Part shown: positions 5,382 through 13,545 of the stretch, one piece after another | Layout: the number at the start of each line of letters is the position of its first letter | How positions within the stretch are numbered: the first letter of the stretch is position 1 | Assembly (NCBI GenBank): GCA_023898465.1 | Contig: CP060223.1 | Span: forward strand, 288,001 to 352,000 | DNA: 64,000 nucleotides | From: Candidatus Nomurabacteria bacterium | Lineage (GTDB): Bacteria; Patescibacteriota; Patescibacteriia; HK-STAS-PATE-3 | Reading direction: 5' to 3' | Translations under genes and position numbers: made by a program | Notes under the pieces: model-generated | What the model was told of the DNA's origin: nothing | The model's input: only the letters and a program-made list of their open reading frames with translations | Databases searched by the model: none

Positions 5382-5456
5382 GGCCCTATCGTCTAGTGGC
5401 TAGGACGCATGGTTCTCATCCATGTAACAGGGGTTCGATTCCCCTTAGGGCTACCA
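5382..5456 (+). tRNA. tRNA-Glu (anticodon CTC), CCA encoded
   Basis: Cloverleaf folded by hand: acceptor GGCCCTA/TAGGGCT, D-arm GTCTAGTGGCTAGGAC (near-identical to E. coli tRNA-Glu), anticodon stem CATGG/CCATG with loop TTCTCAT, T-arm AGGGGTTCGATTCCCCT, discriminator A, CCA. Confidence 0.9.
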
Positions 5457-7666: not shown

Positions 7667-10600
7667 ATGGACTCTGCCCCATTAACACTACAAACGAAGA
7701 CACTGCAGAGGTCTTCCGATCTAAATAATTACAGACTCTATCGCGCAGCTCTTGAATGGGAGTTGATTGATCCTATTGTCATAGAAGACCGGGATGACAT
7801 GCATTCCGAAAGTAGTTGGCGTGATCGTCTTGAGCCGTATCATCATCAAGTAACTAACCTAATAACTTTTTGTCGTCGCCTACCTGTTACTTTACTGGCG
7901 GATGATGTCGGGTTAGGAAAAACAATTAGTGCTGGCCTAGTTTTAAGCGAGTTAATTTCGCGCGGGAGAATTTCAAAAATATTAATAGTTTGCCCAAAAA
8001 TACTTCGAGATCAGTGGAAAGAAGAATTGGAAATAAAGTTCCGAATTCCGTCCACAATTGTGACAGGAAGAGAATTAATTACGGCAAAGCCTCCTGAAGA
8101 ACCAGGAGCGGTAATTACCACATACAATACGGCCAGACTGTATTTAGATAGAATTGACCAGAATGGTTTTGAAATATTGATACTTGATGAGGCGCATAAA
8201 TTGCGGAATCTATATGGTGTTGACCCAACACCTCAAGTTGCAATTAAATTCCGTAAAGCTCTGGCTGACCGGATGTTTAAGTACGTATTAATGTTAACTG
8301 CAACGCCGATCCAGAACAGACTATGGGATCTCTACTCGTTGGTTGACTTATTAACCGTTGCACGCGGCCATGAAAATCCCTTTGGAACGCCAGGTATTTT
8401 TGCGAGAAAATTTATTGCAGATAGTCGCACACAAGCGCGTCAGCTTAATCCGGAGATGCGGGATGAGTTTCGCTCAATTATTTACGGTTATATGTCTCGG
8501 GTTCGTCGTGGAGATGCAAAACTCCACTTCCCAGAGCGGGTAGTACAGTTGCATAAAGTTGACCCAACACCAGAAGAATTGCAGTTGATCGGTGTGGTCG
8601 GAAAATCTATACAACAACTGAATGCGCTTACACAAATTGTAATCCTCCAAGCTTTGGTGAGTAGTCCAGAAGCGCTAATAAAGATGTTAGAAGGAATGGC
8701 TAAAAAAGGAACCGTACCGCGTGAGGTGTTGGCGAACGTTAAGGAATCAGCCAAAGAAATTCAAATCACTACAAAACTAAAAGGTTTGGGCGCGTTAGTT
8801 GAAAAACTTAGAAAGGAGCAACCCAATACTTGGCGGGTGGTAGTTTTTACAAGATGGCGAGAAACTCAAACAACTATCGAAACTTTTCTTGAAAAGCAAG
8901 GAGTAAAATGCGGCTTGATAAATGGCGATTCAAGTAAGCGAAATCAGGAAACAATCCAAAGATTTAAAAAAGACTTACCAGACATTAATGTAATTATTTC
9001 TACTGAAGCAGGTTCGGAGGGCGTTAACCTTCAGGCCGCTAATGTTTTGGTTAATTACGATCTCCCCTGGAATCCAATGATAGTGGAACAAAGAATAGGT
9101 CGTATTCAAAGACTTGCTTCTAATTATGCAAATGTTTCTATTTTTAATATTGTTTTGCAAAATACCTTTGAAGAATATATTGTAGGGCGCTTGATGGAAA
9201 AGTTGCAGATGGCTTCTCATGCAATTGGGGATATTGAAGCACTATTGGAAGCATCCGGCATTGATGAAGGTGAAGAAAATGGCTCAAGTGGTTTTGAAGA
9301 AAAAATTCGCCAGTTAGTAGTTGCATCTTTAGCTGGAAAAGATGTTGAGCAGGCAACTCGTAAAGCTGAACAGAGTATTTCAGAAGCTAAAACAGAATTA
9401 GACCATGAAGAAAAGAACATTAATGCTTTACTTGGGGGGATGAGTGATTCTCTAGATTCTGGTCCAAGATGTCCGAAGCTTCCTCAAACTACTAAGTCGA
9501 TGGATGTCCGTGATTTTACTACGGCTGCTCTTATGAGCTTAGGCGCGGAACTACATCCAAAAAAGGATGGTTTATTAGTTTCACAACTTGCTGGGAAAAA
9601 AGAATTAATCCGATTTGATAATAACACTCTGAGCAGTGAAGAGGAGAGTGTCTTATATGCACCGGGAACTTCAACTTTTGAACGCTTAGTCCATAAAGTT
9701 GCAAATGTAGGAAAACACATTGTTGAAGACCTTGATAAAAACCCCCAACAGCAAATTGAGAAAGTAAGTCGTCAATGGGTCGAAAGTTTTGGCGGAGACT
9801 TCGAAAATGTAACGGTAGAGGACGTTTCTCGATGTTTTGCAGGAGTAGCAATAATTCGTGCAAGATCAACAGTAGCTCACGATAGTTATGAGCGTCTCAT
9901 TGAGGTTTCGTGCGCTCCCACTGAGCATTTCAGTTTTGTGACAAGAACGGGATTGGAACCCATCGGAGACTATATTGAAAATCCGACATCTGTTGGTGCG
10001 CTTTCAGAAAAATTAATTGAAAAAGCCAGCCAAGACTCGAGTATTCTTGAGTTCTGTAGATTTTATTTAGAACGAAGATCTCAAGAAATTGCCTCCGCAG
10101 GAAATGACGAAAGAAAAAAGAAAAAGCTTGAGGATGAGTTTACGCCCCGTCTTGAATTTTCCCTAGTCGGTCTTGAGGGCAAGGTTCATCGGATAGTTAA
10201 AAATCAGGTCTCTTATAGAATTGAACGTGAGGGCCAATACAAAAGTACCCTCATGATAACCCCCTCTTCTGGGCAAGTTGATATGCCGGGGATGGGACAA
10301 TGCATGAAAACAGGTAAGACTGTACCGAGCGATTGCTTAGCAAAGTGCGAAATAAGCGGACTTATAGTATTGCGGCATTTTCTTGATCAATCAGAGATCA
10401 GTAATCGACTGGCGCTCCCTGAGCACATCGTTTTATGTACGTTAAGCAACAAGCGAGTGCTAGCGGACGAAGCTATAAAATCAGATGTTACGGGCAAACT
10501 AGTCGCAAAGAAGTTTTTAAAAACATCTTCTCTGAGTGGCAAATTCGCTGAACCACAGTTCATTAACACTTGTGAGTTTACAAAAACAGAAGTTCTGGAA

Positions 10601-11194
10601 AGCGAAATTGCGGTCAGCCAGATTTCAGGAAAAAGATATCGCATTGATGAGCAACTTAAATCCGCAGTTTCAGGAAAACTAGGCCATCGACAAGAATTTG
10701 TAGCAAGTAGTATTTCATCAGCCCCACTTCTTGAAGAAGAAGCCATTCGTTCGGTCACTGGAAAATTTTGTGCACCAATGGAAGCGAGGCCCTGCACTTG
10801 GAGTGGTCGAAAGTGTCACCCCGAAGACCTTAGGACTTGCGAGTTGACCGGAGTCCAAATTCATTCAGAGTACGTAACGCTCGAACCACCAATTCGTTTA
10901 GAAACCCTAAATAATCTTTTGAATGGCACGAGGAGCAAATCTGACAAATTGGAAGTATGGCCTTCACTTTCAAATAGCGTTACAGCTTTATTAAAAGCAA
11001 AACGTTGTAAAATTGAAACAGCAGAAGTTTCACCTAGTGACGATATTTTGGCCGCTTCTATAGAGCTTCGAACTTTTCTAGGCCTGCGCGTGAGTCACAT
11101 TGGCGTACTTTATTCAATAAAGGATGGATCCGTAGTCGGGCGTGTTGCTAGAGGCAAGCGTGGTGATAAGGGCTGGAATCAAACTAAGAACTAA
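7667..11194 (+). CDS. SNF2-family DEAD-like helicase (1175 aa) with a long uncharacterised C-terminal extension containing 15-aa tandem repeats
   Basis: Motif I ADDVGLGKT, motif II LILDEAHKLRN, motif III LTATPIQN, helicase-C STEAGSEGVNLQ and motif VI DLPWNPMIVEQRIGRIQR. About 600 aa after the helicase core have no recognised domain. Low-GC region. Confidence 0.85.
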   Translation: MDSAPLTLQTKTLQRSSDLNNYRLYRAALEWELIDPIVIEDRDDMHSESSWRDRLEPYHHQVTNLITFCRRLPVTLLADDVGLGKTISAGLVLSELISRGRISKILIVCPKILRDQWKEELEIKFRIPSTIVTGRELITAKPPEEPGAVITTYNTARLYLDRIDQNGFEILILDEAHKLRNLYGVDPTPQVAIKFRKALADRMFKYVLMLTATPIQNRLWDLYSLVDLLTVARGHENPFGTPGIFARKFIADSRTQARQLNPEMRDEFRSIIYGYMSRVRRGDAKLHFPERVVQLHKVDPTPEELQLIGVVGKSIQQLNALTQIVILQALVSSPEALIKMLEGMAKKGTVPREVLANVKESAKEIQITTKLKGLGALVEKLRKEQPNTWRVVVFTRWRETQTTIETFLEKQGVKCGLINGDSSKRNQETIQRFKKDLPDINVIISTEAGSEGVNLQAANVLVNYDLPWNPMIVEQRIGRIQRLASNYANVSIFNIVLQNTFEEYIVGRLMEKLQMASHAIGDIEALLEASGIDEGEENGSSGFEEKIRQLVVASLAGKDVEQATRKAEQSISEAKTELDHEEKNINALLGGMSDSLDSGPRCPKLPQTTKSMDVRDFTTAALMSLGAELHPKKDGLLVSQLAGKKELIRFDNNTLSSEEESVLYAPGTSTFERLVHKVANVGKHIVEDLDKNPQQQIEKVSRQWVESFGGDFENVTVEDVSRCFAGVAIIRARSTVAHDSYERLIEVSCAPTEHFSFVTRTGLEPIGDYIENPTSVGALSEKLIEKASQDSSILEFCRFYLERRSQEIASAGNDERKKKKLEDEFTPRLEFSLVGLEGKVHRIVKNQVSYRIEREGQYKSTLMITPSSGQVDMPGMGQCMKTGKTVPSDCLAKCEISGLIVLRHFLDQSEISNRLALPEHIVLCTLSNKRVLADEAIKSDVTGKLVAKKFLKTSSLSGKFAEPQFINTCEFTKTEVLESEIAVSQISGKRYRIDEQLKSAVSGKLGHRQEFVASSISSAPLLEEEAIRSVTGKFCAPMEARPCTWSGRKCHPEDLRTCELTGVQIHSEYVTLEPPIRLETLNNLLNGTRSKSDKLEVWPSLSNSVTALLKAKRCKIETAEVSPSDDILAASIELRTFLGLRVSHIGVLYSIKDGSVVGRVARGKRGDKGWNQTKN
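10301..10893 (+). repeat. about 12 tandem degenerate 15-codon repeats encoding [CS]-x-h-[ST]-G-[KR]-x8 within the helicase C-terminal region
   Basis: Protein-level periodicity: CEISG, CTLSNK, SDVTGK, SSLSGK, CEFTKT, SQISGK, SAVSGK, SSISSA, SVTGK, CTWSGR, CELTGV at 15-residue spacing. Confidence 0.7.
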
Positions 11195-11195
11195 T

Positions 11196-12686
11196 ATGAA
11201 CCCTCTACTTACAAAAACCGATTATCTTCTTTACCGGGAATGCCCAAAGAATGTTTGGTATAAAATCCAAAAACCTGAATTGTATGCTACATCGGAGCTA
11301 ACAGAGTTTGAAAAATCGATAATGGAAACAGGTAATGAGGTTGAAAAGATTGCAAGGCAACTTTTTCCAAACGGGGTGTTAGTAACTTATCGTGATGCGC
11401 GCGGTCAAGCTGAGACACAAAAGCTATTGGCGGAGAACAAGGATGTGATTTTTCAGCCAGTTTTTGTCAAAAATAACTTTTTGGCTGCTATTGATGTTCT
11501 ACAAAAAGAAAAGAATGGCAAGGGCTACAATGTTTACGAAATAAAATCGACTAGTGATGTAGATAAGAAAACACATTTTCACGACCTAGCATTTCAAGTA
11601 AACGTTCTCAGAATGACAGGCCTGGGAATTAATAAATCATTTGTCATTCATCTAAACTCTGAATATATTCGAAAGGGAGAAATTGAGCTGGATCAGTTAT
11701 TTAAAGTATCAGATGTGACGGATGAAGTAGAAAGTCTTTTACCGGATGTTGCGACTGAGGCGGAAGAAGCATTGAAGTATATTAGCCAAACTTCTGAACC
11801 AGAGGGGTACTGCTGCTGTATTTATAAAGGTCGATCAAGGCATTGTTCAACCTTTCAGCTAGCGAACCCCGAAGTACCCGAATATAGTGTCCACGATATT
11901 TCTAGGATAGGGGTAAGCAAGGCTAAATTAAAAGAGCTAATTGACGGAAGTATTTTTCACCTGGACAAGATTCCGCCACACATTAAATTAAGCGAAATTC
12001 AACAAGGTCAAGTTGAAACCTATAAATTGAATAAGGTATTAGTAGATAAGGAAAGAATTGCGGAAGAATTTAGTGGTCTCACATTCCCACTTTATTTTCT
12101 TGATTATGAAACATTTCCATCAGCAATACCAAGATATGATGGCTTTTCACCATATAAACAAATTCCGTTCCAGTATTCTGTTTACAAACTAGATTCAGTC
12201 GAGAGTGAGCCAACTCATTTTGATTTTTTGTACTCTGGTCCCGAAGACCCCAGCAAGCACTTTGCCGAGTCTTTAAGGGAACATATCGGGGATAAAGGCT
12301 CGATCATCGTTTGGCATAAAGACTTCGAGTGTGGCAGAAATAATGAAATAGGTAGTCGAATTCCTACTTCGAAGGCTTTTTTTGACTCTGTTAATCAGCG
12401 AGTATACGATCTCGAAGACATTTTCAAGAAACAATACCACGTTCATCGAGATTATAAGGGAAGCACATCTATTAAAAACGTATTGCCTGTTTTAGTGCCA
12501 GAATTAACGTATAAAGACCTTGAAATTCGTGATGGTGGCAGTGCAGCGGATAGTTGGGACAAAATAATTAGTGGTGTATATAACGAGACAGAGAAAGAAA
12601 AGGTAATAAAAGATTTAAAGATTTATTGTGGTCTTGATACATTTGCAATGTATGCTATTTGGAATTGCTTGAACAAGCTACTCTAA
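11196..12686 (+). CDS. Cas4/RecB-like PD-(D/E)xK nuclease with Cys cluster fused to a DEDD-like 3'-5' exonuclease domain (DUF2779-like architecture)
   Basis: N-terminal Cys (YRECPKN), D...EIK nuclease motifs, QxxxY-like motif, CCC-x8-C cluster, then FLDYETF (Exo I-like DxE) and YDLEDIF...H motifs. Start is 1 nt after the helicase stop, so translationally coupled. Confidence 0.6.
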   Translation: MNPLLTKTDYLLYRECPKNVWYKIQKPELYATSELTEFEKSIMETGNEVEKIARQLFPNGVLVTYRDARGQAETQKLLAENKDVIFQPVFVKNNFLAAIDVLQKEKNGKGYNVYEIKSTSDVDKKTHFHDLAFQVNVLRMTGLGINKSFVIHLNSEYIRKGEIELDQLFKVSDVTDEVESLLPDVATEAEEALKYISQTSEPEGYCCCIYKGRSRHCSTFQLANPEVPEYSVHDISRIGVSKAKLKELIDGSIFHLDKIPPHIKLSEIQQGQVETYKLNKVLVDKERIAEEFSGLTFPLYFLDYETFPSAIPRYDGFSPYKQIPFQYSVYKLDSVESEPTHFDFLYSGPEDPSKHFAESLREHIGDKGSIIVWHKDFECGRNNEIGSRIPTSKAFFDSVNQRVYDLEDIFKKQYHVHRDYKGSTSIKNVLPVLVPELTYKDLEIRDGGSAADSWDKIISGVYNETEKEKVIKDLKIYCGLDTFAMYAIWNCLNKLL

Positions 12687-12690
12687 ACCT

Positions 12691-13392
12691 ATGAGCTTTC
12701 TTAAGATTTTTAGTGATGATTCTAAAGACAAGCCAAAAGAAAATGATAGTCGGAAACCTGAATGTCCATACTGTCAGGGCGTTTTAGTTAAAATTCCTGC
12801 TAGAAAAACAAAATGTTTTCACTGTGGGAAATATATTTTTGTACGAACACAGACAAAGGACAGAAAGCTCGTTTTGGTTACTGAAGAAAATTCGGCCGCG
12901 ATAGACTCTGAATGGGAGTCAAAACAAGCCGCTACGATCACTTCATTGGTGGAGAAAGTAGATTTTACAAAGAAAAAAGAAGGTCTGCGCGAAGGGTTTG
13001 GGGACAAGGAACCCTCCGTTAGTGACATAAAGTGGGGCTTGTGGAACAAGAGGCTTCAGGAAGCAATGAAACGCAATGATTTTTCAGAACTTTCAGGAAT
13101 ATATTTTCAAATGGCTCTGCGCTTGCACGAAAGTGGAAAAGACAGCTTTAAACTTCAGGGCCAGGCTCAAAAAATGTTTTTGTTTAAAGAAAAGCAAAGC
13201 GGTGTTGTTTCTAGCGTAGAGGTTTTTTCTAGAGATGGCTGTGAAGAATGTAAGAAAATAAACGGAAAGAAATTTGTTATTTTTGAAGCACTAAAACTCA
13301 TGCCACTACCCGTTCAATCCTGCACAAACAAACTGAATAAGAATGCGCCCAATGGTTGGTGTCGATGCACTTTTCTTCCTTTTATAGATTAA
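12691..13392 (+). CDS. double zinc-ribbon protein (hypothetical)
   Basis: N-terminal CPYC-x18-CFHC and C-terminal CEEC...C-x3-C...CRC motifs. Begins 4 nt after the nuclease stop. Confidence 0.5.
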   Translation: MSFLKIFSDDSKDKPKENDSRKPECPYCQGVLVKIPARKTKCFHCGKYIFVRTQTKDRKLVLVTEENSAAIDSEWESKQAATITSLVEKVDFTKKKEGLREGFGDKEPSVSDIKWGLWNKRLQEAMKRNDFSELSGIYFQMALRLHESGKDSFKLQGQAQKMFLFKEKQSGVVSSVEVFSRDGCEECKKINGKKFVIFEALKLMPLPVQSCTNKLNKNAPNGWCRCTFLPFID

Positions 13393-13545
13393 GACTTTGC
13401 CACCAATACTTTTGTTTCGGTCGCTGAGCATCCACCCTTTTTATCCCCCTCTGCCGATCTTCTAAAAAGAAACGGGAATTTAATCACGTAAAAAATAAAG
13501 AGGACCCATTATAACCCCTTGCCTCCGTCATTCGCGAACGACGGG

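Follow-up and report, generated by a model that had tools for sequence, protein, structure and literature searches.

The stretch analysed here, referred to as the window, comprises 64,000 nucleotides of Candidatus Nomurabacteria bacterium contig CP060223.1 (assembly GCA_023898465.1, positions 288,001 to 352,000). It carries a gene for an SNF2-family helicase of 1175 amino acids (aa), whose tail contains an array of tandem 15-residue units. The array was noted in a preliminary description of the sequence and is the subject of this report. The gene is divided as follows (window coordinates):

7667..11194, + strand: SNF2-family helicase gene, 1175 aa, bearing the repeat array (open reading frame (ORF) list; Pfam)
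7820..9241, + strand: SNF2 ATPase core, aa 52-525 (PDB sequence matches; motifs)
9242..10300, + strand: middle region between motor and array, aa 526-878, conserved among the homologues but matching no named family (homologue comparison)
10301..10882, + strand: repeat array, 13 tandem units, aa 879-1072 (autocorrelation, segmentation, AlphaFold2 (AF2))
10616..10705, + strand: units 8-9 (SQISGKRYRIDEQLK, SAVSGKLGHRQEFVA), the most conserved pair, aromatic/His (alignment A1, couplings)

Thirteen tandem units in the helicase tail

The units start at positions 10301, 10346, 10391, 10436, 10481, 10526, 10571, 10616, 10661, 10706 (14 aa), 10748, 10793 and 10838. Unit 10 is the one unit of 14 aa; the other 12 of the 13 have 15. 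Written in register, units 1 to 5 read CMKTGKTVPSDCLAK / CEISGLIVLRHFLDQ / SEISNRLALPEHIVL / CTLSNKRVLADEAIK / SDVTGKLVAKKFLKT, followed by SSLSGKFAEPQFINT / CEFTKTEVLESEIAV / SQISGKRYRIDEQLK / SAVSGKLGHRQEFVA / SSISSAPLLEEEAI for units 6 to 10 and RSVTGKFCAPMEARP / CTWSGRKCHPEDLRT / CELTGVQIHSEYVTL for units 11 to 13.

The mean BLOSUM62 self-similarity of the tail at lag 15 was +0.07 (z = 9.6). When the best lag among 2-49 was taken for each of 2000 shuffled sequences, a mean of -0.56 +/- 0.066 was obtained, and none of the 2000 reached the observed value. Weaker autocorrelation peaks were found at lags 30 and 45. Tandem Repeats Finder detected no DNA repeat in 10200-11000, even at score 30, indicating that the repeat is old and that its periodicity is kept at the protein level, as the preliminary description had proposed. 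The motifs listed there were reproduced by translating 10301-10893, a range whose final 11 nucleotides fall beyond the array. Its estimate of about twelve repeats rises to 13 when the units are counted in register, and the Cys/Ser alternation that it saw at position 1 is in fact the string C C S C S S C S S S R C C. The preliminary description did not recognise a named repeat family, and none of the profiles in Pfam (2025 copy), NCBIfam 20.0 and PADLOC 2.0 extends over the array. Full-text literature searches on the helicase, the neighbour gene and the repeat turned up no description of the repeat. An antisense ORF of 136 aa (10387-10797, - strand) lies wholly within the array; most likely it is an artefact of the repetitive codons on the sense strand, not a gene.

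Structure prediction and fold searches

An AF2 model of aa 850-1175 computed with 49 homologues had a mean predicted local distance difference test (pLDDT) score of 92.1; the array alone (aa 874-1080) reached 90.7. DSSP assigned the pattern EEE------EEEHHH to each 15 residues of the model, corresponding to a strand, a six-residue knuckle (C/S-x-x-S/T-G-K), a second strand and a 3-10 turn. Comparison of the array with the PDB by Foldseek returned no structure at E <= 1e-3 and no beta-solenoid. The sole match of the tail profile among PDB sequences was the pentapeptide-repeat protein MfpA (E = 0.0037, 19 bits). This single match was regarded as chance, as it is without structural support, and kinship to pentapeptide-repeat proteins was rejected. 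Membership of the RTX / beta-roll, pentapeptide-repeat or other beta-solenoid families was likewise rejected, since neither a characteristic motif nor a parallel beta-helix fold was found. The solenoid or beta-roll-like domain suggested earlier thus holds as regards a structured region (pLDDT 91-92), but very probably not as regards a beta-solenoid, in view of the Foldseek result and the absence of GGxGxD or A(D/N)LxX motifs.

Unit numbers mostly follow steps of four

A search with aa 850-1175 against 1.84 billion representative proteins yielded 457 matches at E <= 1e-3, 175 of them at E <= 1e-30. Many of the array homologues are 1200-2100 aa long. In a separate homologue search with the same region all products were shorter than 560 aa, and two of them, P0047 and P0054, were inspected; P0054 is one piece of an SNF2 gene split over several gene calls, and P0047 is described with its locus below. 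We aligned 86 full-length members and segmented their arrays with a position-specific scoring matrix and dynamic programming. A total of 3234 units resulted, whose consensus is C/S-[EA]-V-[ST]-G-[RK]-R-V-L-P-D-E-L-V-x. In this alignment the helicase motifs GLGKT, DEAH, TATP and QRIGRxQR are at least 90% conserved, indicating that the array belongs to one SNF2 helicase clade.

The preliminary description had proposed to check homologues for copy-number variation, which proved to be extensive, from 9 to 73 units. The counts are quantised. Arrays of 9, 13, 17, 21, 25, 29, 33, 37, 41, 45, 49, 53, 57, 61 and 73 units were found, and 72 of the 86 representatives have 4n+1 units (binomial p = 4e-30); 45 of the 86 have 12n+1. 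The distance from the invariant first Cys to the Cys of the last unit is a multiple of 60 aa in 67 of the 86 proteins. Internal duplicated blocks, which could be traced by recurring 14- or 16-residue units, comprise 4, 8 or 12 units. Seventeen units are found in the closest relatives (tail identity 36-59%), exactly four more than in the window array. These 17-unit relatives span Nitrospirota, Acidobacteriota, Planctomycetota, Alpha- and Gammaproteobacteria, Ignavibacteria, Patescibacteria, Deinococcota and Desulfobacterota. Their units are orthologous across phyla at 36-59% identity.

Units 8-9 are the most conserved pair, with the core stretch SGKRYRIDEQ / SGKLGHRQEF. Five of their residues, S138, D145, S150, G157 and F162 (numbering of alignment A1), are invariant. 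Long arrays repeat the aromatic-His pair at intervals of 6, 8 or 12 units, and an aromatic-R-x-D unit followed by a G-H unit was counted in 74 cases. A 60-sequence profile of four-unit windows had no match in a set of 5.8 billion proteins, a negative that is no guide to the occurrence of the repeat outside SNF2 helicases.

Covariation between neighbouring units

Mean-field direct-coupling analysis was performed on 2429 distinct three-unit windows from the 86 homologues. Positions within a unit (u) are termed p1 to p15. The top couplings were p1-p4, p1(u)-p12(u+1), p8(u)-p9(u+1), p8-p13 and p15(u)-p7(u+1), each of which was seen again in independent unit pairs. The p15(u)-p7(u+1) coupling corresponds to a hairpin closed over the knuckle.

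Judged by these sequence correlations, units fall into two flavours according to whether position 1, which is coupled to p4 and to p12 of the following unit, is Cys or Ser. Family contingency tables showed that 88% of S units (Ser at p1) also have Ser at p4 and that 94% have Glu at the next-unit p12. C units (Cys at p1) carry Thr (56%) or Ser (36%) at p4 and face Leu or another hydrophobic residue at p12 of the next unit. In the window array, five of the six S units have Glu at the next-unit p12, and the residue facing the C-type units is Phe, Tyr, His or Glu. Arg occupies p1 of unit 11 and faces an invariant Asp at p12 of unit 12.

A second set of correlations involves charges. An acidic p2(u) together with a basic p6(u+1) was observed 776 times versus 531 expected, and two acids at these positions 15 times versus 86 expected. 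The p6 base is also statistically paired with the p11 acid of the next unit. Lys or Arg occupies p6 in 53% and p7 in 31% of units. The window array as a whole is charge-neutral (26 K/R versus 24 D/E).

Complete metal ligand sets in distant relatives

In several distant relatives (P0157, P0142, P0179, P0187, P0137, P0166 and others) the arrays open with units such as CAVCEVSLCQDHRKR and CARCGTWLCSIHAR. Their register is that of the window array, with CxxC occupying p1/p4 and either CxxH or CxxC occupying p9/p12. The ligand-bearing units form four-unit modules of the type [K T][K T][- T][K' -], where K denotes a pair of ligands in the knuckle and T one in the turn. Within such a module every pair finds a partner only when K(u) is combined with T(u+1). 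Turn pairs that have no knuckle pair in their own unit are preceded by a unit with one in 27 of 35 cases. Furthermore, eight proteins possess a single isolated four-ligand site in the middle of a ligand-free array, and this is always CxxC(u) plus CxxH(u+1), for example CTQCRARILPDEGIT followed by CSESGQFACPDHLVA. When the ligand-bearing modules were searched against Pfam, zf-AN1 was the sole family touched, at a sub-threshold E of 0.1-0.2. Couplings and ligand pairs together point to the interleaved order of half-sites that characterizes cross-braced fingers.

Four Cys/His ligand pairs, as needed for two zinc ions, are present in the sequences of P0157, P0142 and others, but not in the window array. 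None of its 12 junctions has more than two classical ligands at p1, p4, p9' and p12' (a prime denotes the next unit), and the window array is therefore probably zinc-free. In the family, Cys at position 4 occurs in less than 2% of units (60 Cys-Cys pairs among ~3200 units). Metal binding by the cysteines of the window protein, which the preliminary description had considered, is not supported, as the full four-ligand set of the distant relatives is found in no unit pair.

Motor and middle region of the helicase

The protein is a member of the SNF2 / Swi2-Snf2 family. Both lobes score above the Pfam gathering thresholds, with SNF2-rel_dom (PF00176) at aa 75-307 (92.5 bits, cut-off 24.9) and Helicase_C (PF00271) at aa 381-483 (75.8 bits, cut-off 23.5), and motifs I, II, III and VI are intact (GLGKT, aa 82-86; DEAH, aa 174-177; TATP, aa 211-214; QRIGRIQR, aa 475-482). 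The same scan gave no Pfam match within aa 812-1175. PDB sequence matches (SsoRad54-like 1z63, RapA 6bog, CHD4 and others) are confined to aa 52-525. Two Logan contigs encode a protein identical to the window helicase.

Loci of relatives were located by a profile scan of genome contigs with alignment A4. The middle region (aa 560-850) is 39-54% identical in these loci and 26-28% identical in long-array loci. It had no PADLOC match at aa 512-849, and the alignment of the NCBIfam DrmD profile to the helicase ends at about aa 663. The array, the middle region and the end domain are all without a PADLOC or NCBIfam model. A subgroup (P0120, P0139, P0156, P0165, P0178 and P0202) carries ~200-340 extra residues N-terminal to the SNF2 core; in the three extensions scanned (P0120, P0139 and P0178) no Pfam match was found.

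A three-gene island with a predicted nuclease

Downstream of the helicase gene lie two further genes:

11142..12686, + strand: DUF2779 gene (Pfam PF11074, 123 bits; PADLOC Cas4, E = 4.8e-7)
12691..13392, + strand: ORF233, 233 aa, Cys-rich, third gene of the cassette (ORF list)

The GC content of the helicase, DUF2779 and ORF233 genes is 0.37-0.42 versus 0.49-0.51 in the flanks. The resulting low-GC island (window 7700-13400) consists of exactly these three genes, and no integrase or flanking repeat was seen. It is flanked by a glycosyltransferase gene and a hrcA-grpE-hsp20-dnaK-dnaJ cluster. Owing to its low GC content the island looks like a horizontally acquired cassette. A tRNA-Glu(CTC) gene (5382-5456, + strand) is located ~2.2 kb upstream of the island, with the glycosyltransferase gene in between; it is not an obvious integration site. 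The DUF2779 ORF (GTG at 11142; Logan gene call from 11160) overlaps the 3' end of the helicase gene including its stop codon, which suggests that helicase and nuclease are translationally coupled. DUF2779 proteins are predicted fusions of a Cas4-like PD-(D/E)XK nuclease with a 3'-5' exonuclease (PMC13621843, PMC3985635).

ORF233 starts 4 nucleotides past the DUF2779 stop and displays an N-terminal ribbon-like motif (CPYC...CFHC) and a C-terminal CEEC...C...CRC motif; its Pfam matches were sub-threshold only. As a conserved third partner it was rejected, because tblastn found no homologue beside any related helicase. In contrast, a homologous DUF2779 gene adjoins the helicase gene in three other loci, namely upstream in L005, downstream in L027 and divergently oriented in L030. 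Adjacency to DUF2779 was counted in four independent loci. A further locus (L001, 5600-10762) contains P0047, a 253-aa remnant of the C-terminal tail; immediately upstream are IS21-type transposase genes (rve, IstB), and beyond these lies what is left of a DUF2779 gene (65 aa). This locus adjoins serine recombinases and a ThiF/Multi_ubiq/BubE cluster.

Several long arrays reside among defence genes. P0061 (61 units) lies directly 3' of drmA-drmB-drmC, and P0063 (73 units) amid genes for an MmeI-like methyltransferase, a RES-domain protein and GmrSD as well as drmA-drmB-drmC. These two are the only relatives with a DISARM operon. P0114 (25 units) has a second SNF2 gene and an MmeI-like methyltransferase gene upstream and abuts phage-like genes. 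In two unrelated metagenome contigs (L006, 1-8000; L040, 1-6620) another SNF2 gene and an MmeI/Eco57I-type methyltransferase gene (1400-1580 aa) precede the array helicase; L006 has, in addition, a RES-domain gene upstream and GmrSD and drmA/drmB/drmC downstream. This gene content implies two different SNF2 helicases per island, of which the separate one may be the DrmD of the system.

Relation to known helicases and zinc fingers

The ATPase core matched the PADLOC profiles BrxHI|BrxHII (2e-57) and DrmD (2e-54). The best NCBIfam DrmD match of the helicase had an E of 1.5e-63; the helicase scored 215.5 bits against a cut-off of 610 (NF038317) and 184.3 bits against a cut-off of 950 (NF038318), and long-array relatives score 195-207 bits with the DrmD profiles. 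With scores below the equivalog cut-offs, an assignment as DISARM DrmD was rejected. The neighbours of the window helicase include no drmA (helicase), drmB (DUF1998), drmC (PLD) or methyltransferase gene but the glycosyltransferase, DUF2779 and ORF233 genes and hrcA-grpE-dnaK. The helicase resembles DISARM DrmD, BREX type-3 BrxHII and RapA-like proteins in the ATPase core, RapA being also matched in the PDB; its array lies outside all of these profiles. As its core is closest to BrxHI|BrxHII and DrmD but far under the cut-offs, the array family is, by sequence comparison, a DrmD-like yet distinct defence-island helicase.

The AN1 consensus of InterPro/Pfam, C-x2-C-x(9-12)-C-x(1-2)-C-x4-C-x2-H, is equalled by the array spacing p1-x2-p4-x11-p1'-x2-p4'-x4-p9'-x2-p12'. 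Likewise, the spacing of the isolated sites, C-x2-C-x11-C/x-x2-x-x4-C-x2-H, is that of the first site of such a finger. Cross-braced binuclear treble clefs include the AN1, FYVE, PHD and RING-like fingers (PMC4999995). Like the array, cross-braced treble clefs (FYVE, PHD, RING-like, MYND, HIT, AN1) consist of knuckle hairpins followed by a short helical turn with the second ligand pair, and their half-sites are interleaved. They are closed domains of 40-70 residues with two zinc ions, whereas in the array the interleaving extends over 9-73 units and Ser/Ser/Glu or Cys/Thr/Leu take the place of the ligands in the window protein.

Cross-braced fingers that dispense with zinc have a precedent in the U-box, a RING-like fold in which the metal sites are replaced by hydrogen bonds and salt bridges while the fold is kept. 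In contrast to the array, it is a single E2-binding domain of eukaryotic ubiquitin ligases, with no tandem polymer, sequence relation or shared context. The loss of chelating residues in the U-box is variable (PMC4999995). Beta-hairpin repeat rods such as choline-binding or clostridial CROP repeats and LIM tandems differ from the array in motif and context, being extracellular ligand binders or zinc-dependent eukaryotic adaptors; Pfam gave no choline-binding/CW_binding or LIM match for the array (CW_binding none even at E <= 10).

Discussion

On balance we favour the view that the array is an open-ended chain of zinc-knuckle-like beta-hairpins, which arose from cross-braced modules of the AN1/FYVE/PHD-like treble-clef type, has lost its metal ligands here and forms a stiff stalk, scaffold or ruler. 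In each unit, p1-p6 (C/S-x-h-S/T-G-K/R) would form the knuckle, p13-15 of the previous unit and p7-9 the strands, and p10-12 the 3-10 turn. Knuckle residues p1 and p4 of unit u would pack against turn residues p9 and p12 of unit u+1, so that the sites interleave along the chain. The zinc ion would be replaced by a hydrogen-bonded Ser-Ser-Glu triad in S units and by a cluster of Cys, Thr/Ser and a hydrophobic residue in C units, and a charge ladder between the p2 acid and the p6 base of the next unit would add inter-unit contacts. Each added unit would close the previous site and open a new one. N units would thus make N-1 sites, and 4n+1 units 4n sites. The four-unit blocks may preserve phase or may merely reflect an ancestral four-unit module.

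Interleaved sites and the p2-p6' ladder would result in a stiff stalk, which may fix how far the small C-terminal alpha+beta domain stands from the SNF2 motor and how it is oriented towards it. Defence-type RapA/BrxHII-like helicases end in alpha+beta domains (PMC12839542). By analogy, the array may be a spacer of variable length between alpha+beta domains of the RapA-like kind. The helicase array would then probably serve as scaffold or ruler in a DNA-targeting conflict system. Periodicity, unit anatomy, covariation, ligand-bearing relatives, quantised counts and gene contexts were observed directly; the three-dimensional contacts, the rigidity, the absence of zinc and this ruler or scaffold function are inferred. 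In its widest form the proposal would be an undescribed principle: an open-ended, metal-free polymer of cross-braced half-sites with 4n junctions, acting as a rigid ruler in a widespread class of antiphage SNF2 helicases, where 9 to 73 units would define the spacing between the motor and an effector-docking end domain. We put this wider version forward tentatively and regard it as rather doubtful.

Several points weigh against the stalk proposal. The confidence of AF2 can be inflated on repeats, and covariation, ligand patterns and fold-search hits, not coordinates, are the basis for the p1/p4-p9'/p12' contact, for the rigidity and for the rise and twist of each unit. Inter-unit sequence similarity is maximal at lags 3, 6, 9 and 12, yet the unit counts step by 4, which the model leaves unexplained. 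Distal C1035, C1043, H1051, C1058 and H1066 as well as proximal C879, C890 and C894 are conserved and could form one or two capping metal sites outside the pairing rule. Regarding the biological context, most 17-unit relatives are solitary genes in variable neighbourhoods, with no conserved partner and in several cases with integrases or recombinases, and the window helicase reaches 215 bits against the curated DrmD cut-off of 610.

The array might instead be a parallel beta-roll or beta-solenoid, in which each 15-residue unit forms one two-strand coil stacked like those of RTX rolls, antifreeze beta-helices and pentapeptide-repeat proteins. Two short strands per 15 residues, the many inter-unit couplings separated by 14-20 residues, as for stacked coils, and the MfpA match (the only PDB sequence match of the array profile, E = 0.0037) would suit such a fold. 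It is nevertheless very improbable, because the p15(u)-p7(u+1) coupling closes an antiparallel hairpin across the knuckle and the coupling offsets are mixed (14, 16, 17, 18, 19, 20 and 26) where a parallel ladder has a constant 15; moreover, the ligand pattern of the relatives fits a cross-brace, neither a GGxGxD nor an A(D/N)LxX motif is present and Foldseek found no match at E <= 1e-3. We attach practically no weight to a linker that is disordered or of low complexity and periodic by accident: the lack of a family annotation and the abundance of S, G, K and E would suit it, but the z of 9.6, the pLDDT of 91-92, the position-specific conservation and covariation and the 457 representative homologues at E <= 1e-3 contradict this. 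A stalk that still depends on structural zinc or iron, bound via Cys, His and possibly Ser/Glu at several junctions, is rather improbable. It would account for the nine Cys and five His of the array, for the invariance or near-invariance of C879, C890, C894, C924, C969, C1035, C1043, C1058, H1051 and H1066, for the relatives with complete ligand sets in the same register and for the u8/u9 site composed of Ser, Ser, His and Glu plus Tyr. However, no window junction has more than two classical ligands, Cys at position 4 is found in less than 2% of units, and the pairing of S units with Glu in 94% fits a replacement by hydrogen bonds.

Two further explanations concern function and not fold. The array could be a polydactyl nucleic-acid-binding surface, with the knuckle-tip K/R residues (p6, p7) lying along the DNA, the number of units setting the footprint and the special unit pair marking periodic contacts. 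The tips of zinc knuckles often touch nucleic acids, the protein is a DNA translocase with a nuclease partner, the Y/F-His unit pair recurs periodically, and p6 and p7 are basic in 53% and 31% of units, respectively. We still consider this surface unlikely, as the window array is charge-neutral and no DNA-binding family matches it; furthermore, the p6 base is statistically paired with acids on both sides, p2 in the preceding unit and p11 in the following one, and therefore looks structural, not free. Alternatively, changes in copy number might reflect an arms race of a variable sensor that recognises phage proteins, a role proposed for the repeat domains of other defence sensors. Copy numbers of 9 to 73, the location of relatives in defence islands and recent internal duplications of 4, 8 or 12 units are consistent with such a sensor. 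It is distinctly improbable, since the units of the 17-unit clade are orthologous and 36-59% identical across Nitrospirota, Acidobacteriota, Planctomycetota, Proteobacteria, Patescibacteria and Deinococcota, which indicates purifying and not diversifying selection.

The zinc-knuckle hairpin, the cross-brace and the loss of zinc as in the U-box are already known; the proposed open-ended metal-free polymer of quantised length is not. If the stalk proposal is true, a closed two-zinc finger has been opened into an indefinitely extensible, zinc-independent rod in which Ser-Ser-Glu triads replace the metal. This would be a repeat-protein design absent from current catalogues and a possible scaffold to engineer rods of defined length. 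The array marks a large unannotated clade of defence-island SNF2 helicases, with 457 representatives at 50% identity in many phyla, and accounts for ~200 to 1100 residues per protein that are currently without domain assignment. Little is understood of the accessory SNF2 proteins in DISARM-like systems or of how they are linked to DUF2779 nucleases, and the 4n+1 length provides a concrete, testable feature of these helicases.

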